From a candidate division WOR-3 bacterium (lineage in GTDB: Bacteria > Hydrothermota > Tepidihabitantia > Tepidihabitantales > CAIPLT01), in assembly GCA_026418155.1 (NCBI GenBank), contig JAOABV010000005.1, positions 1 to 59,379 of the forward strand: DNA of 59,379 bases, read 5' to 3'. Both the position numbers and the translations under genes were made by a program. Under the pieces are notes generated by a model. That model saw only the letters and a program-made list of their open reading frames with translations. It made no database searches and was not told where the DNA came from. The stretch's first letter is position 1, and the number at the start of each line of letters is the position of its first letter. Below are positions 1-50,360 of the stretch, in pieces.

Positions 1-298
1 GTCTAAAAAAGGATTAATTCTTCTATCAAAGTCAAGTTAAAAAGTGAGGAAAGTTTTAATGTCTAAAAAGGAATTACTTCTTCTATCAAAGTCAAGTTAA
101 AAAGTGAGGAAAGTTTTAATGTCTAAAAAAGAATTGCTTCTTCTATCAAAGACAAGTTAAAAAGTGAGGAAAGTTTTAATGTCTAAAAAGGAATTATTTC
201 TTCTATCAAAGACAAGTTAAAAAGTGAGGAAAGTTTTAATGTCTAAAAAGGAATTGCTTCTTCTATCAAAGTCAAGTTAAAAAGTGAGGAAAGTTTTA
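1..298 (+). repeat. Tandem array of five 60-bp units, each copying the ptsI RBS, start codon and first 8 codons; the array is cut by the window edge
   Basis: Units at 1-60, 61-120, 121-180, 181-240 and 241-300 are near-identical and in register with the real start at 299. Each holds GAGGAAAG, an ATG and a 13-codon ORF ending in TAA. Confidence 0.95.
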
Positions 299-2080
299 AT
301 GTCTAAAAAGGAATTAATTCTTCGTGGTATTCCGGTGTCTCCTGGTATCGCGATGGGAAGGGTATTTGTTTTTAAGCGGTTTGTTCCTAATTTTCGGGAA
401 CGCTTAATTCCTCATAATGAGGTTAGGAATGAAATTAGCCGTTTCCAAAAGGCGATTCGAGAGACAGAGCAAGAACTTAAGGTTTTGCAAGAAGAAATTC
501 GTCAAGAGATGGGCGCTGATTTGGCTGAACTTATTTCTTTACAGATTGCTTTGCTGAATGACCCTGAGTTAATTGATGGCACTATTAATTTCATTGTGAA
601 CGAAAAACGCAATGCGGAGTTTGCTTATTCTGAGATATTAAAAAAATATTTGATACCGTTAAACGATGCTAAGACTCCGTTCTTTAAAGAGCGTTTGGCC
701 GATGTTATTGATGTTTCCACTCGAGTGATGCGTAATCTTTCCGGTGAGGCTTTACCTTCGATTTATGAGGTTAGTCCTGGGTCAATTCTTGTTGCGCATG
801 ATTTGTTACCTTCAGAGGCTGCACTTTTAGACCGCGAACGCATTGCTGGTGTTGCGACTGAAGTTGGCGGTAAAACTTCTCATACCGCAATTATGACTAA
901 AGGTAAAGAAATTCCTGCAGTTGTTGGTGTTGAGCATTTGATGAAATCGGTCTCTTCGGTTTCTTCCCAAGTTGTGCTTGATGGCTCGCGTGGTCTTTTA
1001 ATTCTTGAGCCAACCGAAAAACGCATTAATTTTTATAAAAAAGAACTGGAAAGTATTCAAAGGCAACGCAGTTATCTGGCAACGCTTAAAGAATCGGAAT
1101 CGTCAACTTTAGATGGTAAGCATATTGATGTTTCAGCAAATATTGAATTTGTTGCCGAAACTTTAACCGCTTTAGAAAACGGTGCTCGGGGTATTGGTCT
1201 TTTTAGAACCGAATATCTCTATTTAGCCAAAAGAGGTCCGGTCTCAGAAGATGAACAGGCGATGATTTATGCTGATGTTGCGGATAAGATGAAGCCCTAT
1301 CCAGTTATCATCCGAACTTTTGATTTTGGTGGTGATAAGTTAATTCCAGGTTATTTTGAATCTAATCCGTTTTTAGGTTGGCGCGCTATCCGTTTGTGTT
1401 TTGATAATCTGGAACTTTTCTTAAATCAGATCAGAGCGATTTTACGCGCGGGCACGAAAGGTAATGTGAAGTTGATGCTACCAATGATTTCCAGTATCGA
1501 AGAACTAAGAAAGGCAAAATTGATTATTGAACAAGCCAAGAATGAGTTACGAAATAAAGGTGTGCAGTTTGACCCGAATCTCGAGGTCGGGATTATGGTG
1601 GAGACACCAGCCTGTGCTTTATTGGCAGACCAGTTTGCCCAAGAATGTAACTTTTTTTCGATTGGTTCTAATGATTTGACGCAATATACTTTAGCGGTCG
1701 ACCGAGATAATGACCGAGTAGCAAAACTTTATGACCATCTGCATCCGGCTGTGCTGAAATTGATTAAATCGACGATTGATTCGGCTCACAAGAATGGCAT
1801 CTGGGTCGGTTTGTGTGGTGAATTTGCCTCTGACCCGTTGGGCGTTATCGTCTTAGTGGGATTAGGAATTGACGAGTTATCAATGGTACCATTTGCGATA
1901 CCAATTGCCAAAAAGATTATTCGGAGCATTGATTTTAGTATTGTGAAAGAAATTGCCCAACAAATTCTGACTTTGTCAACACCGAAAGAAGTCAGTGATT
2001 TTATCCAAGAGAATATAAAAACCAAGTTTCCGGATTTAGCAAAGTTTTTAGCAACTGTACAGAGCGGTAATCAAGCCTAA
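299..2080 (+). CDS. ptsI: Phosphoenolpyruvate-protein phosphotransferase (PTS enzyme I)
   Basis: Full-length PEP-utilising enzyme architecture, with phospho-His loop GGKTSHTAIM and C-terminal SIGSNDLTQY. Start placed at ATG 299 (GAGGA 8 nt upstream) rather than the ORF-track GTG 284, which lies inside the repeat unit. Confidence 0.93.
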   Translation: MSKKELILRGIPVSPGIAMGRVFVFKRFVPNFRERLIPHNEVRNEISRFQKAIRETEQELKVLQEEIRQEMGADLAELISLQIALLNDPELIDGTINFIVNEKRNAEFAYSEILKKYLIPLNDAKTPFFKERLADVIDVSTRVMRNLSGEALPSIYEVSPGSILVAHDLLPSEAALLDRERIAGVATEVGGKTSHTAIMTKGKEIPAVVGVEHLMKSVSSVSSQVVLDGSRGLLILEPTEKRINFYKKELESIQRQRSYLATLKESESSTLDGKHIDVSANIEFVAETLTALENGARGIGLFRTEYLYLAKRGPVSEDEQAMIYADVADKMKPYPVIIRTFDFGGDKLIPGYFESNPFLGWRAIRLCFDNLELFLNQIRAILRAGTKGNVKLMLPMISSIEELRKAKLIIEQAKNELRNKGVQFDPNLEVGIMVETPACALLADQFAQECNFFSIGSNDLTQYTLAVDRDNDRVAKLYDHLHPAVLKLIKSTIDSAHKNGIWVGLCGEFASDPLGVIVLVGLGIDELSMVPFAIPIAKKIIRSIDFSIVKEIAQQILTLSTPKEVSDFIQENIKTKFPDLAKFLATVQSGNQA

Positions 2081-2252
2081 AATGGTATTAATGAAAAGAC
2101 GGAAAAAATCAATTCTTTTCCTTGAAGATATTGACTGCGCTGACTGTTTTTATGTGGCTTTTCCGATACAGATGCGGAACGCAAGTGTTTCCAAGGCGTA
2201 TTTAAGGTTTATCAAATTGTCGTGATTAGCAGTTTGTCTGCAAGGATTACTA

Positions 2253-3290
2253 ATGAATAAAATGTTTAATCTTATCTATAATTTGCCTGACCAGATTAAA
2301 GATGCTTACAATATCGCGCAAAGGTATAAATTCAGTTCTAAACTTTTATTTCAGCCAGCTAATATCGTTATTACTGGTATGGGTGGTTCAGGAATTGGTG
2401 GCGAAATTATCCGTAGTCTATTTTGGACAACTTTGGATATTCCCATTATTATCTCTAAAGATTATACTTTACCAGGATGCGCCAATAAACAGAGTTTGGT
2501 CTTTGCAGTGAGTTATTCGGGTAATACTGAGGAAACGCTTGAAAGTTTTAATCTTGCCCGTAAACGCCGTTGTCCGATAGTTGCGATTACCAGTGGAGGG
2601 AAATTATTAGAGTTATGTAAGAAATATCAAATAGATTGTATTCAAATTCCATCAGGTCTACCCCCGCGTTCAGCAATTGGATATTTATTTATTCCTCAGT
2701 TAATTACTTTGGAGAAAATCGGAATAATCAAAAAAACGACTCAAACGATTAATGAAACGATTAATACTCTTATAACTAATCGGCAAAAATATAATATTCA
2801 GGCCCGAAAATTGGCTCGTGAATTGTTAAATAGCCTTCCGATTATCTATACCACCAGCCATCTTTTTAATCCGGTTGGTCTTCGCTGGCAGGCACAGTTT
2901 AACGAAAATGGCAAAACTTTTTGTCATTGGAATGTATTTCCGGAATTAGACCATAATGAGATTGTGGCTTTAGCCGATTCTACCAGTCTTACACAACCTT
3001 ATTATTTTCTAATCCTAATTGACTCCAATACCCATCGCCGCAATTTGCTTCGAGTTGATTTAACTTTGAAAATTATAAAATCTAAGGTAAAAAATATAAA
3101 AATAAAATCTAAGGTAAAAAATATAAAATTCAAAAAGTTTTATGCTGATGGCAAAGCAGATTTAACTCGCATCTTCTCGTTAATAATGCAAGGCGATTTA
3201 ATCAGTTTTTATTTGGCATATCTGCAAAACATTGACCCAATGCCCGTTTTGGCTATTGATGAACTGAAAAAAATGCTGGCAAGGCGCTAA
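2253..3290 (+). CDS. Bifunctional phosphoglucose/phosphomannose isomerase family (SIS domain)
   Basis: SIS motifs GMGGSGIGG and SYSGNTEET. C-terminal RWQAQFNENGK...PELDHNE pattern typical of PGI/PMI. Confidence 0.8.
   Translation: MNKMFNLIYNLPDQIKDAYNIAQRYKFSSKLLFQPANIVITGMGGSGIGGEIIRSLFWTTLDIPIIISKDYTLPGCANKQSLVFAVSYSGNTEETLESFNLARKRRCPIVAITSGGKLLELCKKYQIDCIQIPSGLPPRSAIGYLFIPQLITLEKIGIIKKTTQTINETINTLITNRQKYNIQARKLARELLNSLPIIYTTSHLFNPVGLRWQAQFNENGKTFCHWNVFPELDHNEIVALADSTSLTQPYYFLILIDSNTHRRNLLRVDLTLKIIKSKVKNIKIKSKVKNIKFKKFYADGKADLTRIFSLIMQGDLISFYLAYLQNIDPMPVLAIDELKKMLARR
3076..3129 (+). repeat. Perfect in-frame 27-nt tandem duplication inside the PGI/PMI CDS
   Basis: ataaaatctaaggtaaaaaatataaaa occurs twice back to back, giving IKSKVKNIK-IKSKVKNIK in the protein. 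Confidence 0.9.
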
Positions 3291-3300
3291 GGCGCTAAAG

Positions 3301-3596
3301 ATGATAAGAGAAATTCAGAAGCAAAATTTAATTTACGCAGAGCAGTCTACAGTTAGTATCGGCAAAAAATAAGTTATGCTAATAGTGAATAATATCTTTG
3401 GAAAAGATAATATAGGTGTTTTCGATAATAAAGCAGAAAAGAACAGTGATGTTCAAAGTTATTATATTCTTTGAAAAAGGTAATATTTATGGTTTTACTA
3501 ATAAAGTAGGCAAGGAGCCGTTATGTTCAAGGTTGTTATATTCTTTGAAAAAGGTAATATTTATGGTTTTACTAATAAAGTAGGCAAGGAGCCGTT
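3301..3596 (+). repeat. Four tandem 73-75-bp copies of the 5' end of the downstream nucleotidyltransferase gene, more decayed with distance
   Basis: ATGs at 3301, 3376, 3449 and 3523 precede the true ATG at 3597. The two proximal copies are near-identical and include AAGGAG plus ATG. Peptides MFKV(V/I)IFFEKGN resemble the true MLKVIIPAAGEG. Confidence 0.85.
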
Positions 3597-4571
3597 ATGT
3601 TAAAAGTAATTATCCCTGCTGCTGGCGAAGGCAGACGCTTAAAACCGCATACCCAGACTACCCCAAAAGTTTTACTCAAAGTCGCTGGTAAACCAATTTT
3701 AGGTCATATTCTGGACCGAATAATTTCAATAAATCCTGACGAGATAATTGTTATTGTCGGCAGTCAAGGAAAACAGATTCAAGATTTTCTAACCAAAAAC
3801 TATCCGCAAAAATTCCAATTTGTCGAACAACAAAACCCAATGGGATTAGGTGACGCTATCTATCGTGTTAGCGACTATCTTCAGTCAGAACCGGTGTTGA
3901 TTCTTTTAGGTGATACCATTCTTGATTTAGATTTCTCGGCTTTTATTGGCAAGGAAAATTTAGTTGGCATCAAACCAGTTTCCACTCCTCAACGCTTTGG
4001 TATCGTGGAGACGCGTAGCGGATATGTCACCCGAATTACGGAAAAACCGCTTGAGCCCAAAAGTAATCTGGCTTTAGTCGGAATCTACTATTTTACAAAT
4101 GCCCAACCGCTTTTCGATAATCTCAGAAAAATTGTCCAAGAAGGCAGAAAGACTCGCGGGGAATATCAATTGTCTGATGCTCTGCAAGAAATGATTGAGC
4201 AGGGTATCAAAATCAAAACTTTTCCTGTAGAATATTGGCTGGATTGCGGAACGCCCGAAGCACTAATCACAACTAACCGTTATCTGCTTCAATCCAACCA
4301 CTATTTTACACCCAGAGAAAAAGTAGTAATTATTCCGCCAGTTTATATTGATGACTCGGCAATCATTGAAGAATCCGTTATCGGTCCGTTTGTTTCCATT
4401 TCAGAACAAGTTGAGATTCGAAATTCAATTATCCGGGACTCAATTATTAATCAGGATTCATATGTGGAAAATTGTTTACTTGAAGGCTCAATCTTAAGCG
4501 AAAATGCAGTCGTCCGAGAACGAGCCCGAAAACTTAACTTAGGCGCTTTTTCGGAAATGGAATTGGGATAA
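3597..4571 (+). CDS. Sugar-phosphate nucleotidyltransferase (NTP-transferase domain plus C-terminal hexapeptide-like region)
   Basis: N-terminal IIPAAGEGRRLKP nucleotide-binding loop and an LGD motif. The C-terminal I/V-rich region is periodic. AAGGAG lies 6 nt upstream of the ATG. Confidence 0.8.
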   Translation: MLKVIIPAAGEGRRLKPHTQTTPKVLLKVAGKPILGHILDRIISINPDEIIVIVGSQGKQIQDFLTKNYPQKFQFVEQQNPMGLGDAIYRVSDYLQSEPVLILLGDTILDLDFSAFIGKENLVGIKPVSTPQRFGIVETRSGYVTRITEKPLEPKSNLALVGIYYFTNAQPLFDNLRKIVQEGRKTRGEYQLSDALQEMIEQGIKIKTFPVEYWLDCGTPEALITTNRYLLQSNHYFTPREKVVIIPPVYIDDSAIIEESVIGPFVSISEQVEIRNSIIRDSIINQDSYVENCLLEGSILSENAVVRERARKLNLGAFSEMELG

Positions 4572-4655
4572 TTTTATTTTACCACAAAGTCCCAAAGGAA
4601 AATAAAGCATTCGCTCACCGCACTTCTTTATTTATGATAATTAGAAAGGATTCCT

Positions 4656-5960
<1,305 letters not shown>

Positions 5961-6019: not shown

Positions 6020-6125
6020 GTATAATAAATATTTTGTGTAGATTTAGACTTGATGTGTTAAAAATAAAGGTGTATTCTCCTATGATGAACAATTTCAATA
6101 ATAATAAGAGAACGCACCTAATGGA
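6020..6125 (+). repeat. Copy A of a dispersed ~50-nt intergenic motif, with extended similarity to the copy at 39851-39955
   Basis: gtataataaatattttgtgtagatttagacttgatgtgttaaaaataaaggt aligns with copies at 34321, 39851, 53444(-) and 55516(-). Confidence 0.7.
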
Positions 6126-7467: not shown

Positions 7468-7715
7468 ACTAATCAAAAGAGCCACAGGCCTGTTTGACCG
7501 AGAAGGCAAAAGATTAGGCGACTTTATCGGCTATCCTATTGATAATCCAGAGGTTAAATCGTTCGGTCACCTAAAGGACAATCTGAGTATCTGTAGGTTG
7601 GGCGGGCAGAAGGGTATGCCGGAGGGTTGCCGAGGGGTATGCCCCCCGGCTTGCCCCCTGGCTTGCCGACCGGCTTGCCTATTAGGTGACCGAAGGTGTC
7701 AGTTAAGCCGGTGGT
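7468..7715 (+). repeat. GC-rich ~240-nt element, copy 1 (possible structured RNA or MITE-like element)
   Basis: Aligns over its length with the reverse complement of 29028-29258. Contains GGGTATGCC x2 and GGCTTGCC x3. A perfect 13-bp stem, TTCGGTCACCTAA (7562-7574) with TTAGGTGACCGAA (7682-7694), encloses the GC-rich core. Confidence 0.8.
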
Positions 7716-8222: not shown

Positions 8223-9200
8223 TCACAATACTTCCTTCAGAATTATATCATTTGTTTGTTTATCTACATTATATTTTATTAACCTAACGGATTTTTCTTC
8301 AATTAATTTTCTCTTATTTATGTAATTAAGGACAGCGTCGTCAAAATCAAAGCCGACGAGAATGCTTTGAACCATTTCTGGATCCCCATTTGCCAATTTT
8401 CGCACTAACCAGTTTTCATATCCAATAATTTGTCTTAGATTTTCTTCAGTTACAATATCGGTTTTTAATTCGATGCAAGTAAATTTATGTAGAATTTCCA
8501 CGGAGTCAATCGTTGTAACGTGAGTTAAAAACAAATCCATTACTTTATTAAATGATGTCGGTACATAATTTAAAAAATCTTTGTAATCTCCAACTAAATT
8601 TTTCAACTTACTTTCACTGAAAGATTTCATAAACCATGCATTTAAAAATCCTTCATGTTTTATTTTCCCTTGTTCATCACATTCTAATGGTAACTGAATA
8701 TTTTGGGCTTTCGCAGGTTTGTAAGGATTTTTTATGCCCGTTACTGGTTCATATATAGGATTATTTCGTAAAAGAAGCCGAATTATTTCTTTTCCTTCTT
8801 CAGTTGTAATTGTATATTGATTTTTCCTTATGAACGCGCCCAAATCGAAAGTCCAAATTTTACCTTTATCTCTTAAATCTAGAATATCACTTAGTACAAC
8901 TGGTCTCATAAAATTTCTTACAATAGGTTCGAAACAAAATCGAAATGGATAAGTTTGATTATCGGCATTCCAAATATTCCTCTGTTCATAAAATGGATCG
9001 GTAGTTGCTCGCCATAACCCATAAATTCCCGTATTTTTAACATAAAAAAATATGAAGTCGTTAGGTTTAATAGCAAAAATACATGAAATTATTTCGGCAT
9101 TTGTCTTTATATTAGATGGCCATTCGGGGCTTCCGTAGACGCCTTTTTCGATGCAAGATTTAAAATTTTCTTTTCCAATTAAAAAAATATGATAACTCAT
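8223..9200 (-). CDS. Predicted PUA/EVE-like domain fused to a PD-(D/E)xK (NucS/RecB/Shedu-like) nuclease
   Basis: The N-terminal ~150 aa follow an EVE/PUA-like strand pattern (YHIFLIG..., IKPNDFIFFYVKNTGIYGLWRATTDPFYE, YPFRFCFEPI). The C-terminal part has E183, D222 (VMDLFL), E244-L-K246 (CIELK) and Q257-x3-Y261 (QIIGY). Confidence 0.5.
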   Translation of the reverse strand: MSYHIFLIGKENFKSCIEKGVYGSPEWPSNIKTNAEIISCIFAIKPNDFIFFYVKNTGIYGLWRATTDPFYEQRNIWNADNQTYPFRFCFEPIVRNFMRPVVLSDILDLRDKGKIWTFDLGAFIRKNQYTITTEEGKEIIRLLLRNNPIYEPVTGIKNPYKPAKAQNIQLPLECDEQGKIKHEGFLNAWFMKSFSESKLKNLVGDYKDFLNYVPTSFNKVMDLFLTHVTTIDSVEILHKFTCIELKTDIVTEENLRQIIGYENWLVRKLANGDPEMVQSILVGFDFDDAVLNYINKRKLIEEKSVRLIKYNVDKQTNDIILKEVL

Positions 9201-9679: not shown

Positions 9680-10088
9680 TGGAGAGTTAATTCGAAAATT
9701 AAGTTTCTAAACTAAAGTCAGATTGAAGCATAAGATTAGTCAAATAACAAATTTATTAAAAACATCAGATTGTATTGCCACCATCAAAAACTATTGCTTG
9801 CGACACGCGACCGTATTAGAGAATGCTCAGAAAAAAATAAGAAAAATATTCAATCAGTTCAATTTCTTCAATCGTAAGAATTGTCTTTTTCAGGCTTTTC
9901 GTTTTTAAGATTCCTGTGTTATTGTCTCTGCGGGATTGTTGGAATAAGGTCGGAAAAATTGAAAATAAAGTACTTTGCTTTGTGAGACATCTGTTTATAT
10001 TTTAGAGACTTTGTGAAAAAGGTGTATGGAGTTTAGAGAGACAATCTCTTTCAGTATAACAGACAAAAAATGGAAGGGGTGTATCGTA

Positions 10089-11834: not shown

Positions 11835-13148
11835 ATGGCTTTACAAAATAAGATTATCAACCGAAGTGCTAAAGTTGGGATTGTTGGAATGGGTTATGTT
11901 GGATTACCTTTAGCCGTAGAAATTGCCAAAGCCGGTTATAAAGTTTTTGGCATTGATACTGATAAAAACAAGGTCCGATTAATTAATTTAGGAAAAAGTT
12001 ATGTTGAGGATGTTGCGGATAATGAATTATCGCCTTTAGTCTTAGATAAAAAGATTTGCGCTTATGATAACTATCGGGTTTGTAAAGATTGCGATATCAT
12101 TAATATCTGCGTGCCGACACCATTTACAAAATCGAAGGACCCAGATGTCTCATATATTATCGATGCCGGCAAGGAAATTGCTCAATACTTAAAATCTGAG
12201 CAACTAATTGTGCTACGCAGTACAACTTATCCGGAAACAACGGAAAAAGTGCTTTTACCGATTTTAGAGAAGACCGGCTTAAAAGTCGGCAAGGATTTCT
12301 ATCTTTCGTTTGCTCCGGAACGCATTGACCCTGGTAATAAGACCTTTACGACTAAAACAACCCCGGTGGTAGTAGGTGGGGTTACCAAAACTTGTACCAA
12401 GTTAACCGAACTCTTTTATAGCCAGTTTGTCGATAAGGTCGTGACGGTTTCAAATCCGCGGGTTGCAGAAATGTCAAAACTTTTAGAAAATATTTTCCGA
12501 AGTGTTAATATTGCGTTAGTTAATGAATTGGCTTTGATGTGCGAGCGAATGGGCAATATTGATGTTTGGGAAGTGATTGAAGCCGCGAAAAGCAAACCAT
12601 TCGGTTTTATGCCATTTTATCCCGGACCAGGTATTGGTGGCCATTGTATTCTTATTGACCCTTATTATCTGGCTTGGAAGGCACGCGAATATGATTTTCA
12701 TTCTAATTTTATTGAATTAGCCGCACAAGTAAATGAAAATATGCCTTTTAAGGTGGTTGACCGATTATTTGAGGTTTTAGGCGAAAACTGCATCTGTTCC
12801 AAAAATGCTTCGCTCTTTATTATTGGTGCAGCATTTAAGAAGAATGTCGGTGATACCCGTCATTCTCCGGCAATAAAAGTAATGGAACTCTTAACTGATA
12901 AAGTTAAAAAAATTGTCTATAATGACCCGTATGTGCCTATGTTAAAAATCAATCATAAAGTCTATAAGTCGGTCGAACTTACCGCCGAAAACTTAAAACG
13001 AGCCGATTGTGTATTGATTCTTACTGACCATAGTTGTTATGATGCGAATTTTATCCTCAAAAATAGCCGACTTATCTTAGATGCCAGGAACCTTATTAAA
13101 GTTCGGGGCTACAAAAAGGTCTATACCTTGGGACTGAAAATTGTTTAA
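11835..13148 (+). CDS. Nucleotide-sugar dehydrogenase (UDP-glucose/GDP-mannose dehydrogenase family, UDP-N-acetyl-hexosamine dehydrogenase-like)
   Basis: Rossmann motif VGIVGMGYVGLP and catalytic Cys motif GPGIGGHCILID. GGAGG lies upstream of the ATG. Confidence 0.85.
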   Translation: MALQNKIINRSAKVGIVGMGYVGLPLAVEIAKAGYKVFGIDTDKNKVRLINLGKSYVEDVADNELSPLVLDKKICAYDNYRVCKDCDIINICVPTPFTKSKDPDVSYIIDAGKEIAQYLKSEQLIVLRSTTYPETTEKVLLPILEKTGLKVGKDFYLSFAPERIDPGNKTFTTKTTPVVVGGVTKTCTKLTELFYSQFVDKVVTVSNPRVAEMSKLLENIFRSVNIALVNELALMCERMGNIDVWEVIEAAKSKPFGFMPFYPGPGIGGHCILIDPYYLAWKAREYDFHSNFIELAAQVNENMPFKVVDRLFEVLGENCICSKNASLFIIGAAFKKNVGDTRHSPAIKVMELLTDKVKKIVYNDPYVPMLKINHKVYKSVELTAENLKRADCVLILTDHSCYDANFILKNSRLILDARNLIKVRGYKKVYTLGLKIV

Positions 13149-13182
13149 TACTACTTTCTGATAATCAGTAACTTAGATTGTT

Positions 13183-16059
13183 ATGCCGCGAGTATGGGAA
13201 ATTGCGATTCAGAAAAAAGGCTTTAATCCGGAAGTCGAAACTTTAAAGAAAAGTATCCAAGATCTCGGCATTAAAGAAATAAAAGACTTAAGCATAATTT
13301 ATCTTTACTATTTATTTACTGATTTACCTTTGAAGGTTATAAAAAAAATTACCCGTGATTTTATTTGCGATACGGTTTCGGAGCGATTTACAGTTAAGGA
13401 GTTGTCAATTCGGTCTAATAAAAATTTGCGTCATACGATTGAAGTCGTATATAAACCTGGAGTAATGGACCCGGTAGCAGAAAATGTGATGGTCGGCTTA
13501 AAAGATTTGGGTTACCAAGATTGTCTTATCCGAACCAGCCAACGCTATGTCTTTCCCCCAAATCTTTCGGTAAACACTATCAAAAAAATTACGGAAAATT
13601 TGCTGTATAATCCTTTGGTGCAAGAGATTGTCAAGGATAGTGCCCAAATACTTGAGATTGGATATAGGCAAGGAGTTAAATCGGAATTTGCTGTTCAATA
13701 TGTTGAGATTCTTAATAAGACTAAGGCACAATTAAGAAAAATTTCTCGAGAACGGTTATTGGCATTAAATGACCAGGAGATGCTTACGATTCAAAGCTAT
13801 TATCGGAAACTGGGGCGAAATCCGACAGATGTTGAACTGGAGACATTTGCCCAAACCTGGTCCGAACATTGTAAGCATAAAACATTTTCGGCTCGGATTA
13901 TCTTTGATGATGGTAAACAAACTCAAATTATTAATGGTCTACTTAAATCGTATATCAAAAAAGTTACACAGAAACTGAATAAAAAGTGGTGTCTTTCAGT
14001 TTTTGAAGACAATTCAGGGGTAATTGAATTTGATAAACAGTATGGGATTTCTTTTAAGGTTGAGACGCATAATCATCCTTCAGCATTAGAACCTTATGGT
14101 GGTGCGGCAACAGGAATCGGTGGTGTGATTCGCGACTGTTTAGGTACTGGATTAGGCGCAAAACCGATCTTAAATACCGATGTTTTCTGCTTCGCTCCGC
14201 CAGATTTACCTCTTCAGAAAATTCCTGCTGGTGTTTTATCACCCAAAAGAATCATTAAGGGTGTAGTTAAAGGCGTTCGTGACTACGGAAATCGAATGGG
14301 CATTCCGACTGCATCCGGTTGTGTCTGTTTTCACGAGGGATTTGTTTGTAATCCTTTAGTCTATTGTGGAACTGTCGGTTTAATTCCGAAAAATAAGATA
14401 AAAAAGAAAATCGTGCCCGAAGATTTAATTGTTCTTATCGGTGGTAGAACTGGACGTGATGGTATTCACGGTGTAACTTTTGCCTCATTAGAATTAGATA
14501 ATACCACTCAACAAATTTCCTCCAGTGTTGTACAAATTGGCAATCCAATCGAAGAAAAAAAGATTACGGATTTGCTAATCTCAGCCCGAGACCAATCACT
14601 TTTTAATGCGATTACTGATTGCGGCGGTGGTGGGCTCTCTTCAGCAATTGGTGAATTGGCTAAATCTGGCGCCGAAGTTGATTTAGAAAAGGTTCCCTTA
14701 AAATATGCGGGATTATCTTATACCGAGATTTGGATTTCGGAATCGCAGGAACGAATGATTCTCTTTGTGCCCAGTAAAAACTTGTCAAAACTTCTTGATT
14801 TGTGTAAATTATACCAAGTGGAAGCAAGTGTAATTGGCAGAGTAACTGATACTGGTAAATTACATTTGCGCTATTGGGGAAGAGAAGTTGGTAATATCGA
14901 TTTAAATTTCTTGCACCAAGGACTACCACAAAAGACAATGGTCGCTAAGTTTCACAAACCAACTGAAACTTCTTTAAAACCCGAGCAGTTTCTAATAAAG
15001 AGAAGTCAAGATTATAATAGAATCGTCTTAGAAATGCTCAGTGATTATAATGTTGCCAGTAAAGAATGGATTGTTCGTCAGTATGATTTAGAGGTTCAAG
15101 GAAATACAATAATCAAACCTTTTGTCGGAAAATACAATGAAGGTCCTTCTGATGCTTGTGTGCTTCAACCGCGAAAACAATCAAAAAAAGGTGTGGTGAT
15201 TGGTTGTGGCATCGCATCGCAATATCAAAATCAAGACCCGTATTGGACTGCGGCTACTGCGATCGATGAGGCAATACGAAATATTGTTGCAGTTGGCGGC
15301 GACCCGGATAAAACTGCGTTGTTGGATAATTTTTGCTGGGGCAATCCCGAACGACCAGAAATTTTAGCCGGATTAGTTCGAGCCTGCCAAGCCTGTTATG
15401 ATATAGCACGGATTTACGGCACACCATTTATTTCGGGTAAAGACAGTCTATACAACGAATATAAATCAAGCAGGGGCAAAACGATTTCCATTCCAGCAAC
15501 ATTATTGATTTCTGCAGTGAGCATTATTCCGGATATAAATAAGACTGTAACAATGGATTTCAAACAAGCAGATGATTTAATCTATCTGATAGGAAAGACT
15601 TATCCTGAGTTTAATAGTTCTAAAGTTAATCCTAAATTAGGTATTAAGATTTTTCGTGCTTTATATAAAGCCATTCAATCTGGTTTAGTTTCTGCCTGTC
15701 ATGACTTATCTGAAGGTGGATTAGCAATTGCACTTGCGGAAATGTGTTTGGCAGGTAATGTCGGTGCGGAAATCTTTTTGAAAAACCTTAAGGTCTTTTG
15801 CCCATCAATTGCCGACAAAGATAATATATGCCTTTTTTCCCAATCTAATACTCGTTTTATCTGTGCGGTTTCGTCTAAAAATCAAAGACGGTTTGAAAAA
15901 ATTATGGGAGAACTGCCACACACATTGATTGGTAAAACCAATTCAACCGATAGATTAAAAGTATACGGCTCAGATAATCTGCTGATTATTAACCTTAAAA
16001 TTCAAACTATGAAATATACCTGGCAAACTACATTAAGCAAAGCATTGATTAGTAATTAG
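13183..16059 (+). CDS. purL: Phosphoribosylformylglycinamidine synthase subunit PurL with an N-terminal PurS-like extension
   Basis: PurL motifs WSEHCKHKTF and VETHNHPSALEPYGGAATG. About 190 extra N-terminal residues include the PurS-like segment VVYKPGVMDPVAENVMVGLKDLGY. Confidence 0.88.
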   Translation: MPRVWEIAIQKKGFNPEVETLKKSIQDLGIKEIKDLSIIYLYYLFTDLPLKVIKKITRDFICDTVSERFTVKELSIRSNKNLRHTIEVVYKPGVMDPVAENVMVGLKDLGYQDCLIRTSQRYVFPPNLSVNTIKKITENLLYNPLVQEIVKDSAQILEIGYRQGVKSEFAVQYVEILNKTKAQLRKISRERLLALNDQEMLTIQSYYRKLGRNPTDVELETFAQTWSEHCKHKTFSARIIFDDGKQTQIINGLLKSYIKKVTQKLNKKWCLSVFEDNSGVIEFDKQYGISFKVETHNHPSALEPYGGAATGIGGVIRDCLGTGLGAKPILNTDVFCFAPPDLPLQKIPAGVLSPKRIIKGVVKGVRDYGNRMGIPTASGCVCFHEGFVCNPLVYCGTVGLIPKNKIKKKIVPEDLIVLIGGRTGRDGIHGVTFASLELDNTTQQISSSVVQIGNPIEEKKITDLLISARDQSLFNAITDCGGGGLSSAIGELAKSGAEVDLEKVPLKYAGLSYTEIWISESQERMILFVPSKNLSKLLDLCKLYQVEASVIGRVTDTGKLHLRYWGREVGNIDLNFLHQGLPQKTMVAKFHKPTETSLKPEQFLIKRSQDYNRIVLEMLSDYNVASKEWIVRQYDLEVQGNTIIKPFVGKYNEGPSDACVLQPRKQSKKGVVIGCGIASQYQNQDPYWTAATAIDEAIRNIVAVGGDPDKTALLDNFCWGNPERPEILAGLVRACQACYDIARIYGTPFISGKDSLYNEYKSSRGKTISIPATLLISAVSIIPDINKTVTMDFKQADDLIYLIGKTYPEFNSSKVNPKLGIKIFRALYKAIQSGLVSACHDLSEGGLAIALAEMCLAGNVGAEIFLKNLKVFCPSIADKDNICLFSQSNTRFICAVSSKNQRRFEKIMGELPHTLIGKTNSTDRLKVYGSDNLLIINLKIQTMKYTWQTTLSKALISN

Positions 16060-16077: not shown

Positions 16078-16410
16078 ATTAGTGCTATCTGAATGAAATT
16101 TTATATTTAAGATTTTTGTAGTATAGTTTTACTTATCTAAAAATACTATCCCAATGTTAAAGGAAAGTAAGGTATAGTGCTATTTGAGTTGAAATTTTAT
16201 ATTTAGGATTTTCGTCGTATAGTTCTATCTATCTCTATCTAAAAATAATAGACCAATCTTTAAGGAAAGTAATATTTAGTATTATTAAAGTTAAAATTTT
16301 ATATTTATGATCTTTGTAGTGTAGATTTACTTATCTAAAAATAATAGATTAATCTTAAAGGGAAGCATTATTTAGTACTATTTTGAGTTAAATTTTGGAG
16401 TTGTGAGATA
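16078..16410 (+). repeat. About 3.5 degenerate ~95-100-bp tandem repeats just downstream of the purL stop
   Basis: Units start near 16078, 16173, 16275 and 16371. All share ...agtgctat(c/t)tga...gaaattttatattta(a/g)gat...ctaaaaata.... The unit junction resembles the purL stop region (aagcattgattagtaattag). Confidence 0.8.
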
Positions 16411-16528: not shown

Positions 16529-16837
16529 TTATTTGAGTCGAAACTTAATATCCGTAATTGCCTTTTCACCGATTTGGACGTTTAATTTGTTAATTATCTT
16601 TGATTTGAGAAATATTAATTCATTGCGCCAAATCGGATTTGAGACCAAGACTATTAAGGTCTTACCTTTAATTTTAATTGGTCGGGCATTTTTGGCAATT
16701 TGCTCACCAACTGCTTTAGGCCATAATGAGATTACCTGTTCTTGAACAAGTTTTGGGGTAAGTCCTAATTTGTCAAAGACTCTGGGTAATAAATCAGCCA
16801 GGGGTTTCAATTTTTTAGGTTTTATTTGCTTTGACAT
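16529..16837 (-). CDS. DUF721 (DciA-like) protein downstream of recF
   Basis: The pattern WPKAVGEQIAKNARPIKIKGKTLIVLVSNPIWRNEL, and the position after recF, are typical of the DUF721 family. Confidence 0.75.
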   Translation of the reverse strand: MSKQIKPKKLKPLADLLPRVFDKLGLTPKLVQEQVISLWPKAVGEQIAKNARPIKIKGKTLIVLVSNPIWRNELIFLKSKIINKLNVQIGEKAITDIKFRLK

Positions 16838-20633: not shown

Positions 20634-21775
20634 ATTTATTTATAAGCCACTGAATACAAAGAAAAATAAAATTTATTAGTCTCAGCGGCAATATCTAATC
20701 ATAATAAAATGCTTTGGAAAAGTCAAACTTTCTTTTAGCGAAGAGTTCAGCAAAAATTCTTTATGCTCCTAAAAGAGTCAACGCAGGACAAATATATCAA
20801 GTAGTTTTATTGAGGGTAGTAAAAATCCCTATCCGATAAAAGCGAAAGGCTAACTTGTTAATTATTGATTACAGACGCAAAAATCTTGAGGCTAACTTAT
20901 CCAGCAGATATATTTATGTCAGTATTTCTCTGACTAAAAACGCGTGTCTCCTATCAAAATAATAAAAAATAACAACGCTTTTCAGAACAATATTTTTCTC
21001 TTATTACCTTTTGCACTTAAACCATACTCTCAGAACACAACCGCTTATAAGCATTTAGGCTTTCTTTATCAAAAATTCCTATATTCTATTCACAGGCAAG
21101 CAATTTGACGCAAACGACAATACTATTTCTCTTTTTAATAATATGCCGACTAAACATAAAAAGATTATGTTTTATAGGCAAAATCCAAATTAAGTCAAAT
21201 TTTATTTAACCTTCTAAAAATCAATAACTAATCTTTAACAACTACTTGCAAGGGGTATAGTGGGGTAGGCTGGATTGCGAATTCGGAACCAATAAAAAAA
21301 GAACTTTCAAATTCACTCCTATTACAACACGCAAAATCGCAGATAAGATGGTTCATAAAAGAGCGGTTAAATAAATCCTTAAAAGATTACTTAATAATGA
21401 GTTTAAGATGTCGTTTATTAGGGATCAAAAGAGAAAGTCTTTCGGGTTATAGAAAACTGCGCTCATTATGTCATAAACTATCGCCTAAACTGGTTCACTC
21501 GGAAAAGACAAAATAAAGTTTCAACCATTGATTTCACAAGATTTATTTTAAAAACTGGGTATATCTGTTTTCATCCGTGGCTGTAGAATAATGGGCGGCG
21601 ATTCCTCGGCGCCTGATTTGTCATTCTACTCCAAACTCGTTTCAACAAAAGAATCTACTAATTGGTTATCAATAAATTTCTATCGAATTTCTATCAGTTT
21701 CTCTTTAGTTTTAATAAGTTTCTATCGTATTTCTATAAATTTTTACTAATTTCGTTCTGTTCTCGCTATTCACTC

Positions 21776-26285: not shown

Positions 26286-28775
26286 ATGACTGATAGTTTT
26301 AATAATGATTTACCGCTTGACAAAGAGGTATCACAGTCTAATGTCAAATCCGAAATGCGAGCGGTAAGTAAGGACAAAGAAGAAAATTATATTTTTCGTT
26401 ATGTTGCGAAACGTGACGGGAAAATACACGAATTTGATAAAGAGAAAATTACTAATGCCATTTTTAAGGCGGCACGGTCAGTTGGAGGTGAAGACCGTAA
26501 ATTAGCCTCAGAACTTGCAGATAAAGTAGTTTTGTATTTATATAATAAATATAAGAATGTCAAAAAAATTCCAGCAGTAGAAGAAATTCAAGATGCCATA
26601 GAAAAAGTCTTAATTGAAGAGGGACATGCCCAAACTGCCAAAGCATTTATCCTATATCGAGAAAAGAGGAGCCAATTAAGAAAAAAACGCGCCTTAGAAA
26701 AAGCCGTAAAACAACAGCCTTTAGAAGCCACTGATTATGCTTTATTTGTTAGAACTACGGATGATAGAATTTTACATTGGGACCGCTCGAGAATTGTTTC
26801 TGCATTAGTTCGAGAAGCCAATCTGGCAACCAGTTTAGCCGAAAAGATTGCGGAAGAAGTAGAAGATGTAATTTTAACTTCGGATGTTAATTTTATTACC
26901 TCAAGTTTAATTCGTGAAGTTGTAAATGCTAAGTTAATTGAACATGGTCTGGGTGAAACCAGAAAATGGCATGCTCGATTGGGCGTTCCCTTGTATGATG
27001 TGGAAAAAATTCTTCTCTATCGTAACAAAGAGAATGCCAATACGCCGCATAATCCTGAAGCCACGAATATGACTTTAGCCGAATCGATTAAGAAACAATA
27101 CGCGTTATCGGCAGTTTTTTCGGAAGATATTGCTGAAGCCCATCGAAAAGGCGATATCCATCTTCACGACTTAGGTTTTATTGACCGACCATATTGTTCT
27201 GGACAATCATTGGAATATGTCAAAAAGTTTGGGTTGAGTCTACCCAGTGCATTATCTATTGCTAAGCCGGCAAAACACCCGGAAACACTTTTGGCTCATA
27301 TGGTAAAATTTTCCGCTGCCTTGCAAGGACATTTTGCCGGCGCAATTGGCTGGGATGCGGTTAACCTTTATTTTGCACCATTTCTGGTGGGAATGAGTGA
27401 TAGAGAGATTCATCAATTAGCCCAAATGTTAATCTTTGAATACTCGCAACAAAATGTTGCTCGGGGTGGTCAAGCAATCTTTTCCGATTTAAATCTCTAT
27501 TGGGAAATTCCGAAACATTTTGAAAATACTCCAGCAATTGGTCCTGGTGGCGAATATACGGGCAAGAAGTATGCTGACTATTTACCTGAAGCCCAAAGAT
27601 TTGTCTGGGCAATCTTTGATGTCTATAAAGAGGGAGATGCCTCAGGAAGACCCTTCTTCTTTCCTAAACCCTTAGTCCATATTACGGAACGATTCTTCCA
27701 AACACCCGGCTGGCAGGATTTCTTATATCATATCTCTGAGGTTGCCAGTGAAAAAGGCAATACCTATTTTGTTTTAGACCGGGGCGAGACCGCAAAAGTA
27801 TCAGAATGCTGTCGGCTCTCATTTAAGTTAGAAAAATCCGATTTAGAAGATGCGGACCGGCCTTGGAAAATGAGATATTCTGCAATTCAGAATGTAACTC
27901 TTAATTTGCCTCGTGCCGCATATCAGGCAAATCATCAAGATGAAATGTTATGGGCAAATATTAAAAGACAACTGAACTTAGCGGCTGAAGGTCATTTACA
28001 GAAAAAAGCATTCTTGGAAAGACTTCTGTCATTAAAAAATGACGGCCCATTAGCATTATTAACAATGGACCGAGATGGTGAAAGTTATTTAAGAATGCAT
28101 CGCGCAACCTATCTTATTGGCATTTTGGGATTAAATGAAATGGTGCAGTATCATTTGGGCAAAGAATTACACGAGGATGACGATGTCTTCTTGTTTGGAT
28201 TAAGAACCATTGCCTTTATTCGCGACGAGACCAGAAAACTTTCAGAAAAATATGGTCTGCGATTTGTTTTAGAACAAACTCCGGCCGAGTCTACGGCTTA
28301 TCGATTTGCCAAACTGGATTTACAATATTATCCTGACTGCGCTAACAAAGTAGTAAAAGGTAGTATTCGCGATGGTGCGGTCTATTATACCAATTCTACA
28401 TATCTTAATGTTGGCCTACCCATTGACCCAATTGAACGAGTGATAAAAGAAGGAAAATTTCACGATATGATTGAAGCCGGAGCATTGACTCATATTTGGC
28501 TGGCAGATGCTAAACCACCTAAAGAAGCAATTGCTAATTTTGTGGAAAAGACCTTTAGAAACTCGCATAATGCCCAAATCGCCTTCTCACCAGAGTTTAC
28601 TACATGTAATAACTGCTTTAAGACCGCTCGTGGATTACGAGATACTTGTCCTTATTGTGAATCTTTGGATGTTGACCATATTACCAGAGTAACCGGTTAT
28701 TTTTCCCGAGTTTCTGGTTGGAATTTAGGCAAAAAAGCAGAACTAAGAGATAGATATAAGGGTGGTATTAGATAA
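26286..28775 (+). CDS. nrdD: Anaerobic (class III) ribonucleoside-triphosphate reductase
   Basis: N-terminal ATP-cone region. C-terminal zinc site CNNC...CPYC and glycyl-radical segment ITRVTGYFSRVSGWN. Confidence 0.92.
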   Translation: MTDSFNNDLPLDKEVSQSNVKSEMRAVSKDKEENYIFRYVAKRDGKIHEFDKEKITNAIFKAARSVGGEDRKLASELADKVVLYLYNKYKNVKKIPAVEEIQDAIEKVLIEEGHAQTAKAFILYREKRSQLRKKRALEKAVKQQPLEATDYALFVRTTDDRILHWDRSRIVSALVREANLATSLAEKIAEEVEDVILTSDVNFITSSLIREVVNAKLIEHGLGETRKWHARLGVPLYDVEKILLYRNKENANTPHNPEATNMTLAESIKKQYALSAVFSEDIAEAHRKGDIHLHDLGFIDRPYCSGQSLEYVKKFGLSLPSALSIAKPAKHPETLLAHMVKFSAALQGHFAGAIGWDAVNLYFAPFLVGMSDREIHQLAQMLIFEYSQQNVARGGQAIFSDLNLYWEIPKHFENTPAIGPGGEYTGKKYADYLPEAQRFVWAIFDVYKEGDASGRPFFFPKPLVHITERFFQTPGWQDFLYHISEVASEKGNTYFVLDRGETAKVSECCRLSFKLEKSDLEDADRPWKMRYSAIQNVTLNLPRAAYQANHQDEMLWANIKRQLNLAAEGHLQKKAFLERLLSLKNDGPLALLTMDRDGESYLRMHRATYLIGILGLNEMVQYHLGKELHEDDDVFLFGLRTIAFIRDETRKLSEKYGLRFVLEQTPAESTAYRFAKLDLQYYPDCANKVVKGSIRDGAVYYTNSTYLNVGLPIDPIERVIKEGKFHDMIEAGALTHIWLADAKPPKEAIANFVEKTFRNSHNAQIAFSPEFTTCNNCFKTARGLRDTCPYCESLDVDHITRVTGYFSRVSGWNLGKKAELRDRYKGGIR

Positions 28776-28800
28776 TACTTTAATATTAGATAATACTTTA

Positions 28801-28955
28801 AGACTGCACGTGGATTACGAGATACTTGTCCTTATTGTGAATCTTTAGATGTTGACCATATTACCAGAGTAACCGGTTATTTTCGCAAGTTTCTGGTTAG
28901 AATTTAGGCAAAAAAGCAGAACTAAGAGATAGATATAAGGGTGGATTTACTAAAG
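28801..28955 (+). pseudogene. Frameshifted tandem duplicate of the last ~150 nt of nrdD (period exactly 180 nt)
   Basis: 28801-28955 aligns with 28621-28775. It has a few substitutions and a 1-nt deletion (ttatttttcccgag versus ttattttcgcaag). Confidence 0.9.
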
Positions 28956-29027: not shown

Positions 29028-29258
29028 GCCTGATCGGCATTATCGGTTGTCGTCTCGGTGAGCCGGTCGGCAAGCCAGGGGGCAGGCCGGGGGGCATACC
29101 CCTCGGCAACCCGCCTGCATACCCTTCTACCCGCCCAATCTACTGATATTTAGATTGTCCTTTAAGTGACCGAATGATTTAACCTCTAAATTATCAATGG
29201 GATAACACAGCAAGTTGTCTAATCTTCTGTCTATTAAGCCAAGCAGGCCTCTTAATAA
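29028..29258 (-). repeat. GC-rich ~240-nt element, copy 2, inverted relative to copy 1
   Basis: The reverse complement aligns with 7468-7715, including ...gataat(tt/cc)agaggttaaatc(a/g)ttcggtcac and ...ttgccgaggggtatgccccccggc(c/t)tgccccctggcttgccgaccggct. Confidence 0.8.
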
Positions 29259-30961: not shown

Positions 30962-31031
30962 AGTTTTATATTCTCCTTATTTATGTCATTGAAAAAGAAT
31001 TTAGAGTAAATTAACAGGTTTCTTATCATAA

Positions 31032-31101
31032 GTGTAATAGGAATAAATATATAGTGAGTGTAATAGGAATAAATATATAGTGTAATAGGAATAAATATAT
31101 T
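31032..31101. repeat. Three tandem 22-26-bp AT-rich units between the M50 protease stop and the lgt start
   Basis: gtgtaataggaataaatatata begins at 31032, 31058 and 31080. Confidence 0.8.
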
Positions 31102-39850: not shown

Positions 39851-39955
39851 GTGTATATTATGTAAATTTACACTTGATATGTTAAAAATAAAGGTATAAC
39901 CGCCTATGATAGATAATGATAATTTTAATAACAAGAAGAAGAGAACATACCTATG
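39851..39955 (+). repeat. Copy B of the dispersed upstream motif, containing the perfect palindrome TGTAAATTTACA
   Basis: gtgtatattatgtaaatttacacttgatatgttaaaaataaaggt, plus ~60 nt of further similarity to 6072-6125. Confidence 0.7.
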
Positions 39956-45412: not shown

Positions 45413-45972
45413 ATGTTATTATTTGTTTTACCATTAGTCTATATACACTGCCTGATACCGTAGAACTAAAAAGCACACAGGATATTTCTTATCGTTTATT
45501 CACCCAAGATAGCACTTTATATTTTCAATTCAAAACAAACAAGAACTGGTCTGTGCCTTAAACAATTGTCGAAAAAGTATCAGAATATGTAATGACTGTT
45601 ACAAATGGTGATTACATTCATCTTGTCTGGGTTAAACAATGAAGAATTTATTATTAAGATAAATAAGATAAATAAGATAAAATAAGATAAATAAGATAAA
45701 TATGTATCCTGTTAATAAAGATTCGTTAAAAAATCAGAAACACCAAGATGGGAATGTAACATTGCTATATCAATTCCAGGTCTTAATGAACCTGCGTCAG
45801 ATATTTCTATGATATTTCAGGCAGATTAGTTAAAACTTTAGTTGATGAAGAAAAGGAACTTGGCAACTACTCATTAACTCTCAACACAAAAACACTTTGT
45901 TCAGGCGTATATTTTCTATCGCTCCAGACAAAAGATAAAAGAATAATTGAAAGATTAGTTATAATAAAATAA
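45413..45972 (+). pseudogene. Decayed gene for a T9SS-sorted protein
   Basis: A short signal-peptide-like ORF begins at 45413. The broken middle contains a 9-nt microsatellite (aagataaat, 45656-45703). An intact-looking CTD tail reads YDISGRLVKTLVDEEKELGNYSLTLNTKTLCSGVYFLSLQTKDKRIIERLVIIK*. Confidence 0.55.
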
Positions 45973-50101: not shown

Positions 50102-50212
50102 CTTTAATAAAAATATCGAAAAATATCTTAAAGTCAATATTATTGGCATTAAATTACATTACTTGAATTTTAAGCAAATATTACTTATAATAATATATCG
50201 TTATTTATTTAT

Positions 50213-50310
50213 AATTTATTATTTATTTTTATTTTTAATTTATTATTTATTTTTATTTTTAATTTATTATTTATTTTTATTTTTAATTTATTATTTATTT
50301 TTGTATTTTT
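50213..50310. repeat. Four tandem 24-bp pure A/T units in a divergent promoter region
   Basis: aatttattatttatttttattttt begins at 50213, 50237, 50261 and 50285; the last copy is a variant. Confidence 0.9.
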
Positions 50311-50360
50311 AACAAAGAAGAAATAAATATTATAAATTTAGATTAGAAAGGAATAAAACT

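Follow-up and report, generated by a model that had tools for sequence, protein, structure and literature searches.

A 60-bp tandem array ahead of ptsI in a WOR-3 bacterium, most likely a near-neutral duplication of a gene junction

The ptsI gene of a candidate division WOR-3 bacterium is preceded by a row of short open reading frames, each of which repeats the beginning of the gene itself, and the question raised by this locus is whether the row is a purpose-built device for controlling enzyme I or the by-product of a mutational process. The window (the whole stretch of DNA analysed, 59,379 nucleotides) is an entire contig, and it opens directly within the repeats. Tandem Repeats Finder places them at positions 1–323, with a period of 60, 5.4 copies, 94% matches, no indels, and a score of 576, and a repeat search of the window returned the same 60-nt spacing between copies that are 94–95% identical, which confirms the tandem mini-ORF array described ahead of ptsI by a first-pass annotation. 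Since the window is the entire contig and the array lies at its end, the copy number of at least five is a lower bound, as the contact of the array with the window edge had already suggested. The features of the region, all on the + strand, are as follows.

1–323, + strand: 60-bp tandem array, five full copies and a 23-nt partial copy, left side cut by the contig end
1–40, + strand: decoy mini-ORF (M)SKKGLILLSKSS and stop, edge-cut, the window starting at the G of its ATG
59–100, + strand: decoy mini-ORF MSKKELLLLSKSS and stop, made of PtsI codons 1–8 followed by five codons read out of frame in the upstream segment and by TAA
119–160, + strand: decoy mini-ORF MSKKELLLLSKTS and stop
179–220, + strand: decoy mini-ORF MSKKELFLLSKTS and stop
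239–280, + strand: decoy mini-ORF MSKKELLLLSKSS and stop, the stop 18 nt ahead of the true ptsI ATG
265–306, + strand: putative 3′ tail of ptsH (HPr) in a second frame, IKVKLKSEESFNV and stop, with copies at 25–66, 85–126, 145–186, and 205–246
286–289, + strand: SD-like GAGG core for the true ptsI start, with identical copies at 46–49, 106–109, 166–169, and 226–229
299–2080, + strand: ptsI, intact, PTS enzyme I of 593 aa with all three PtsI domains (Pfam PF05524, PF00391, and PF02896)

The ATGs of the array are in register (59, 119, 179, 239, and 299), and the first four each open a 13-codon ORF closed by TAA. The array had been credited with at least five decoy starts; four are complete in the window, but the fifth is truncated by its edge. 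GTGAGGAAAG is found ahead of every array ATG, with its GAGG core 9 nt ahead of the first base of that codon, and each decoy stop is separated from the next ATG by +18 nt, with an SD-like site in front of that ATG. The decoy starts had also been called strong, and each copy does possess an SD-like site of its own; however, the site is an ordinary 4-nt GAGG and SD-like motifs of any kind are found in 15 of the 42 genes of this contig, so that the strength of these starts is not established.

The repeated unit is local sequence, composed of the first 25 nt of ptsI and the 35 nt upstream, and the 23-nt partial copy, the last of the array, is the native ptsI 5′ end. The copies vary at five unit positions (10, 12, 16, 17, and 32), none of which lies in the SD-to-ATG stretch; two of these sites are synonymous (AAA/AAG and TTA/TTG) and three nonsynonymous (E/G, I/L/F, and S/T), in agreement with the earlier remark that the copies are not identical and that some of their changes are silent. 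The variants fail the four-gamete test at three site pairs, as expected if repeat copies recombine. In the window, the 20-mer AAGTGAGGAAAGTTTTAATG occurs five times, compared with 0.02 expected by chance, and solely within the array.

The upstream part of the unit points to the gene that would precede ptsI. In all six of the relatives' loci examined, ptsH lies immediately upstream of ptsI, and in two of them (L003 and L008) its stop codon overlaps the ptsI start. An overlap of this kind is kept in the window (ATGNCTAA): the TAA of the upstream frame (304–306) overlaps ptsI codons 2–3, giving a stop/start overlap of −8 nt (ATGTCTAA). Because of this synteny and the retained overlap, the 35-nt upstream part of the unit most likely represents the 3′ end of ptsH; as the upstream gene lies beyond the contig end, the assignment is based on synteny together with a weak sequence similarity. 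The frame-0 translation of the tail was compared with ATGACTAA in L003 and ATGAGTAA in L008, and the DNA similarity is modest (p ~0.01 against random 35-mers, 0.09 against shuffles, and not significant against L001). The blastn homology of the ptsI region with L001 begins 10 nt before the ATG, and the PtsI N-terminus MSKKELILRGIPVSPG aligns with MTKKELILRGIPVSPG of relatives.

Comparison with relatives' ptsI loci, which had been proposed as a check, indicates that the array is absent in both sister species (L001/L002 and L003–L006), each of which carries one junction copy, at a ptsI identity of 79.7% in DNA (L001) and 84–85% in protein. At the ptsH–ptsI junction, L001 has a 17-bp tandem duplication of its own, and a mini-ORF leader is absent in the relatives L001, L003, and L007–L010. 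It had further been considered that the unit might be a dispersed repeat, occurring at many unrelated loci; no copy was found outside the array, either in the rest of the window or in 90 further loci, and an exact scan of genome_contigs and metagenome_contigs with the 34-nt unit core gave 0 matches. Exact-product look-ups with PtsI (ATG and GTG starts) and PGI found no second assembly of the species, and a PtsI-based scan of metagenome_contigs found no confirmed relative. The paired assemblies within L001/L002 and L003–L006 are 100% identical and are therefore uninformative on gain or loss of units between strains.

The array is accompanied by further local duplications on the same contig, three of which are listed below.

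3365–3613, + strand: ~74-bp unit in three copies, 68–92% identity, covering the RBS, ATG, and initial codons of an NTP-transferase gene (start 3597)
4643–4924, + strand: 91–98-bp unit in three copies, 60–78% identity, spanning the tgt start (4845)
28616–28949, + strand: 3′ end of nrdD, its last ~160 nt duplicated at 180-bp spacing, 93–97% identity, with a nested exact 18-bp duplication (two copies)

The duplication at the tgt start likewise creates decoy ORFs, MKFKLTKTLTDCKAR... and MKFEIAKILMDCKAR..., the second of which ends in the ATGA of the true start. The periods of these two start-spanning duplications (74 and 91–98) are not multiples of 3. The closest relative, L011, lacks the nrdD 3′-end duplication at a NrdD identity of 95%, and pgi, on the same contig, contains an exact in-frame 27-bp duplication inside the gene. 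Start-region duplications are found at three of four consecutive gene starts of one operon, a proportion that survivorship bias may explain. Duplications are also found in relatives: L001 has duplicates at the pgi 5′ end, the tgt 3′ end, and the PTS-IIB 3′ end as well as a 96-bp array of five copies, and L012 has a 50-bp array of at least seven copies. One and the same spacer holds different arrays in the window, L011, and L012, indicating turnover between species. At the right end of the contig lies a 312-bp repeat, which, like repeats in L013 and L021, is an in-frame protein-domain repeat and was set apart as belonging to a separate class.

In a comparison that covers two genomic neighbourhoods and about three species, the clade carries 26 local duplications in 171.6 kb and other WOR-3 loci carry 21 in 1279 kb (p = 8e-13), which corresponds to 1.5 versus 0.16 per 10 kb, or a density ~9-fold higher than in ~80 other WOR-3 loci; the enrichment is also seen against 24 low-GC outgroup loci (p = 2e-9). 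By crude ORF calls, coding density is 0.80 in the clade versus 0.92, and the median gap is 120 versus 12 nt (Mann–Whitney p = 3e-5 against low-GC outgroups). Literature searches found no related paper on WOR-3 tandem repeats and mostly mitochondrial papers on start-codon tandem duplications. Tandem-repeat genome plasticity in Ehrlichia ruminantium has reportedly been treated by Collins et al. in 2005 and Frutos et al. in 2006. In this bacterium, as summarised in a review (PMC10710844), tandem repeats from tens to hundreds of bp long are numerous in non-coding DNA or at gene edges, intergenic spacers are long, coding density is low, and repeats actively expand and contract; the clade resembles it in duplication density, coding density, and gap length. 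In contrast to E. ruminantium, an obligate intracellular alphaproteobacterium, the genomes considered here are free-living or hot-spring WOR-3 MAGs of another phylum.

These observations are best explained, with a probability of about 0.7, by an in-situ tandem duplication of the minisatellite or VNTR type, in which a 60-bp segment across the junction of ptsI and its upstream gene, most likely ptsH, was multiplied. The array has the properties of a VNTR-type array, namely a constant period, high identity, a terminal copy continuous with ptsI, and a single copy in relatives. We infer the way in which the array arose, its near-neutrality, the translation of its decoys, and ptsH as the partner gene along the following lines. 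Replication slippage or unequal recombination probably gave rise to an initial duplication, and the segment taken up would have comprised the last ~13 codons and stop of the upstream gene, ptsI codons 1–8 including the ATG, and the SD-like site ahead of them; later amplification would have raised the number to at least five copies, with variants exchanged among them. In the first copy the upstream gene would still run to its end and in the last copy ptsI still has its start, leaving both proteins unchanged. The mini-ORFs would be an automatic by-product, which reads PtsI residues 1–8 and then the upstream segment out of frame until it is closed by a TAA that chances to lie inside AAG-TTA-AAA. 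Ribosomes leaving ptsH would probably be relayed by termination–reinitiation, load anew at each copy, or both, so that ptsI expression would be only modestly altered. The array would be tolerated because both flanking genes remain intact and the mini-ORFs hold ribosomes within coupling range. The array would thus represent one case of a clade-wide build-up of 50–300-bp tandem duplications, which would survive mainly across gene edges or between genes. It is most likely a near-neutral by-product rather than a purpose-built control device; of the possibilities raised by the first-pass annotation, that of a neutral relic is favoured, since the unit copies the local junction, is absent in sister species, and has comparable duplications on the contig and in relatives. 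Less easily accommodated by neutrality are a period divisible by 3, the intact SD-like site, ATG, and in-frame stop of every copy, and the start-region duplications at three of four consecutive gene starts.

Coupled translation through the array has precedents. A −8 nt overlap is one of three enriched coupling spacings, and +18 nt with an SD falls in the range over which coupling persists (PMC12548453); both spacings occur here (ATGNNTAA for the overlap, and +18 nt with an SD-like site), where coupling would be by termination–reinitiation. Known coupling links a pair of real genes or a single uORF with a gene, whereas the present locus would form a relay of at least five uORFs in identical context. 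The suggestion of a reinitiation device is therefore plausible as a consequence of the array, the +18 nt stop-to-ATG spacing being inside the coupling range (PMC12548453), but nothing indicates a purpose.

A purpose is what is claimed if the chain of SD-bearing, ATG-initiated mini-ORFs is an adaptive translational tuner, kept because it sets the PtsI:HPr ratio, with decoys that attenuate coupling from ptsH or add ribosome-loading sites and with copy number as a rheostat; we consider this unlikely. Each copy keeps the GAGG, the ATG, and an in-frame stop placed 18 nt ahead of the following ATG, the copies are 5–6% diverged, so the array is not brand-new, and coupling is spacing-dependent (PMC12548453). 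The SD-to-ATG part is identical in all copies, and the position of the variable sites outside it could hint at constraint, but the probability of such a gap is ~0.09 by our own estimate for five random sites, which is not significant. The decoy peptides vary nonsynonymously, sister species do not share the array, and equivalent duplications with out-of-frame periods or at 3′ ends, nearby and in relatives, make a special explanation unnecessary. It is similarly improbable that a shorter real duplication of one or two copies, or strain variants, were unrolled by assembly into a pseudo-array, although the array lies exactly at the contig end, the opposite end likewise stops in a repeat, and in a relative (L002) a contig assembled independently from short reads ends 57 nt inside a 96-bp array. 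All six copies have distinct variant combinations, which would be unusual for collapsed or looped graph paths, and arrays whose copies are ~95% alike are fully spanned inside contigs, both here and in assemblies made independently (window positions 28616–28949, the five 96-bp copies of L001, and the 50-bp array of at least seven copies in L012).

Regulation by a leader peptide, in which ribosomes stalled at four consecutive Leu codons would control downstream transcription or translation, is highly improbable. The decoys do read ELLLLSK and resemble leu or trp leaders in being short ORFs, preceded by an SD and located ahead of a gene that shares their strand; unlike those leaders, they show no terminator or antiterminator, conservation, or regulatory logic, and they copy the gene's own start. 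The Leu run results from the duplication junction and an I-to-L change and is missing from the real gene, and ptsI is unconnected to leucine supply. Positions 1–2300 contain 0 intrinsic terminator-like sites versus 2.0 expected, and 6 promoter-like sites versus 5.3 expected, of which a single minus-strand one falls in the array; the array RNA folds no better than shuffles (z = +1.15) and forms no alternative-hairpin structure, and an Rfam search of the array matched no family. A regulatory role of the array is not supported, and neither is the leader-peptide device proposed earlier. Also rejected were a promoter array (the unit has no + strand promoter-like site), a riboswitch or known RNA (no Rfam match), a CRISPR-like array (the units abut directly, without spacers), and phase variation by frameshift (the last copy supplies ptsI with a start of its own, and with a period of 60 a change in copy number never shifts the frame). 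Insertion of a dispersed or mobile repeat of the MIRU, REP, or MITE kind at the ptsI start has very little probability. MIRUs insert at start codons with a coupled ORF and a similar outcome, forming tandem 40–100-bp units between operon genes (MIRU-VNTR) whose small ORF is coupled to its neighbours, a coupling thought to render the insertion harmless for downstream expression (PMC12548453). The present unit would, by its spacing, also couple an internal ORF to its flanks, at −8 and +18 nt compared with −4 in MIRU; however, MIRU is a single dispersed, apparently mobile family at many loci, whereas this unit is confined to one locus and derives from the flanking genes' own ends (the ptsI 5′ end and adjoining local sequence), and the other arrays of the window are each built from a unit specific to their locus.

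For ptsI itself the array is of little consequence, as the gene is intact and the duplication is probably near-neutral. Such arrays break short-read assemblies and misguide start-codon calling in these MAGs, and the series at the same junction, with a 17-bp duplication in two copies in one species and at least five 60-bp copies in another, is suited to testing how far coupling tolerates inserted coupled mini-ORFs. A bolder proposal, which we regard as doubtful, is that the array is a copy-number-variable relay of coupled mini-ORFs setting the ratio of enzyme I to HPr, and that a lineage-specific duplication process in the clade systematically separates overlapping operon junctions to yield new intergenic space, uORFs, and independent starts. 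Gene-edge duplications naturally supply uORFs and decoy starts, and in this WOR-3 clade of genus rank the PTS–pgi–tgt operon, whose ancestral form was compact and overlapping, seems to be loosened by repeated short tandem duplications of this kind, which would be a free-living parallel to E. ruminantium.

The array upstream of ptsI is a 60-bp tandem repeat at window 1-323, in which Tandem Repeats Finder detects 5.4 copies with 94% matches and no indels, and a repeat search of the window places the copies exactly 60 nt apart at 94-95% identity. Every unit carries GTGAGGAAAG, and its GAGG core is followed after 9 nt by an ATG that opens a 13-codon ORF. The tandem 13-codon mini-ORFs mimicking the ptsI start, described in the first-pass annotation, are thus borne out by the period, the copy number, and the in-register frames; of the five decoy starts it counted, four are complete and the fifth is truncated by the window edge.

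Complete decoy ORFs of the array (start, strand, product)
59, + strand, MSKKELLLLSKSS, stop
119, + strand, ending KTS, stop
179, + strand, MSKKELFLLSKTS, stop
239, + strand, ending KSS, stop

The ptsI gene is a 593-aa ORF from the ATG at 299 that carries all three PtsI domains, with an N-terminus of MSKKELILRG versus MTKKELILRG in relatives; the closest PtsI proteins share 85% and 84% identity, and the lineage falls in candidate division WOR-3. The window spans the entire 59,379-base contig on which its PtsI is recorded; the array thus lies at a contig end, and the copy number is a lower bound. At the right end (58937-59379) the contig breaks off within a 312-bp in-frame repeat (104 codons) encoding a surface-protein domain, with 131 nt at 100% identity, so that both contig ends break in repeats. 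Five positions vary within the unit, and the changes between copies, previously described as partly synonymous, are synonymous at two of these and non-synonymous at three. Dispersal of the unit at unrelated loci is not seen: the core 20-mer occurs five times in the window against 0.02 expected, always within the array, and exact searches of public genome and metagenome contig collections gave no match to the unit.

The gene order ptsH-ptsI-pgi-NTP transferase-tgt is found in six of six relatives' loci, with ptsH abutting or overlapping ptsI. The overlap of the ptsH stop and the ptsI start reads ATGACTAA in the sister-species locus L003 and ATGAGTAA in the more distant L008, and is retained in the window's unit as ATGTCTAA. 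A second frame of the array ends in IKVKLKSEESFNV and a stop once in each unit, comparable to the HPr tails of relatives, which end in ALKELKKILEGVND and a stop. DNA similarity between the 35 nt 5' of the ATG and the ptsH tail is modest (p of about 0.01 against random 35-mers and 0.09 against shuffles), and is not significant against the ptsH tail of L001, a second sister-species locus. From synteny and the conserved overlap, we infer that the non-ptsI part of the unit is the ptsH tail. The unit would then join the 3'-terminal ~13 codons of ptsH, with the stop codon, to the first 25 nt of ptsI, and the SD-like GAGG would lie in the coding part of ptsH; the array's first copy would supply the end of ptsH and its last copy the start of ptsI, and each mini-ORF would encode PtsI residues 1-8 followed by the out-of-frame ptsH tail, ending at the TAA inside AAG-TTA-AAA. 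In L001, a 17-bp tandem duplication (9970-10004) lies exactly at the ptsH-stop/ptsI-start overlap, un-overlapping the genes with both protein ends kept; it is an independent event at the same junction. In the distant WOR-3 loci L007-L010 the gene cluster is compact, the first three junctions overlapping or leaving gaps of at most 15 nt and the NTP transferase-tgt gap measuring 24-123 nt; spacers 3' of ptsI in the clade of the window, L001, and L003 measure 50-550 nt.

The array is read here as an in-situ minisatellite made from a gene junction and, with a probability of about 0.7, as a near-neutral by-product. The leader-peptide device proposed earlier is not borne out, and a leader attenuator is rejected: no terminator-like site was found in window 1-2300, the fold of RNA 1-360 does not surpass those of its shuffles (z = +1.15), and no Rfam family approaches threshold. 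Promoter-like sites over 1-2300 stand at chance level (6 versus 5.3 expected), with none on the + strand within the array. The decoy starts, formerly called strong, have an ordinary GAGG as their SD-like site, and an SD-like motif precedes only 15 of the 42 genes on the contig. The SD-to-ATG stretch contains none of the five variable sites, and by our estimate five random sites leave a gap that large with a probability of ~0.09; a tuning role for the array is judged unlikely. Slightly less probable still is an assembly artefact. Three site pairs among the copies fail the four-gamete test, which fits recombination or recurrent change.

Of the other two readings offered earlier, neutral relic or reinitiation device, the near-neutral by-product is preferred, and spacings in the reinitiation range do exist: each decoy stop lies 18 nt before the next ATG, and there is an 8-nt overlap between the stop of the upstream frame and the first ATG. 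According to a 2025 review of translational coupling (PMC12548453), -8 is one of three enriched overlap spacings, coupling is maintained to ~+25 nt and less efficiently to ~+40 nt, and MIRUs at start codons are thought to be tolerated because the internal ORF keeps its coupling with the gene that follows. The duplicated junction would, by analogy, bring its own coupling signals, so a 300-nt insertion need not break ptsH-ptsI coupling; such signals would account for the tolerance of the array, not for a purpose. The array resembles MIRU-VNTRs in its end result, coupled small ORFs between operon genes, but a MIRU-type element is rejected, the unit being confined to this one locus. Among the closest parallels is Ehrlichia ruminantium, in which tandem repeats drive genome plasticity and intergenic regions are long (PMC10710844).

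Start-region duplication is not special to ptsI, as the other duplications on the contig illustrate.

Other local duplications on the contig
3075-3128, 27-bp (9-codon) stretch of pgi duplicated exactly, in tandem and in frame, IKSKVKNIK twice
3365-3613, 74-bp unit, three copies, 68-92% identity, covering the NTP-transferase gene's RBS, ATG, and initial codons
4643-4924, 91-98-bp unit, three copies, over the tgt start
16096-16396, 96-bp unit, three copies, 64-79% identity, spacer flanked by the convergent purL-like and 16529-16837 (- strand) genes
28616-28949, 180-bp tandem duplication of the 3' end of nrdD, within which an exact 18-bp unit is nested twice at 28766-28801
31031-31100, 22-26 nt, three copies, AT-rich, intergenic, upstream of a gene
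45655-45702, 9 nt, 5.2 copies, likewise
50204-50312, 24 nt, 4.5 copies, likewise

The NTP-transferase array generates decoy ORFs beginning MFKV(I/V)IFFEKG, and at tgt the second decoy ORF has its stop within the true start's ATGA (-4 spacing). Neither period, 74 or 98, is divisible by 3, and decoy ORFs arise in these arrays all the same, ending -11 to +14 nt from the next start because of the geometry of start-region duplication. The pgi duplication looks recent, and tolerated because it is in frame.

Two dispersed repeats were also observed. An element at ~7470-7700 (+) and ~29040-29230 (-), in opposite orientations, recurs in the relative L011 (~12880-12960), where it is kept downstream of nrdD; it has a GC-rich core with 12-nt periodicity (GGCTTGCC-type), the genome being AT-rich, and its flanks are conserved (…YPIDN.EVKSFGHLKDNL… on translation). 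Both a small paralogous gene and a non-coding element are possible readings. A 78-nt direct repeat of 78% identity (6030-6107 and 39854-39931) ends in an RBS-like AAAGGTG and ATGATG, and may be a promoter or 5' leader that two paralogous genes share.

Relatives carry duplications different from these. In L001, the pgi 5' end and the 3' ends of tgt and PTS-IIB have decayed duplicates, and the locus also contains an intergenic 96-bp array of five copies (20732-21215), 57 nt into which the identical Logan contig L002 stops. L003 has an intergenic 124-bp array of 2.2 copies (8350-8618). The nrdD duplication is absent from L011, the closest relative (95% NrdD identity), which has a different repeat downstream, and L012 has an intergenic 50-bp array of at least seven copies at the nrdD-downstream site (12828-13327). 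By one criterion for all loci (self-BLAST hits on the same strand, offset 15-700, length 30 nt or more, identity 70% or more), and across the two genomic neighbourhoods sampled, local duplications number 26 over the 171.6 kb of the window and its close relatives (1.5 per 10 kb), versus 21 over the 1279 kb of the other ~80 WOR-3 loci (0.16 per 10 kb; p = 8e-13) and 0.15 per 10 kb (p = 2e-9) in the 24 outgroup loci whose GC is under 0.42. Since L013 and L021 owe their repeats to domains reiterated in frame within giant genes, gene-edge and intergenic duplications are limited to the window, L001, L003, L011, and L012 (~three species). By crude ORF calls, coding density is 0.80 in this group versus 0.92 in the others, and the median intergenic gap is 120 nt versus 12 nt. 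The clade-wide duplication pattern is a more interesting result than the ptsI array itself.
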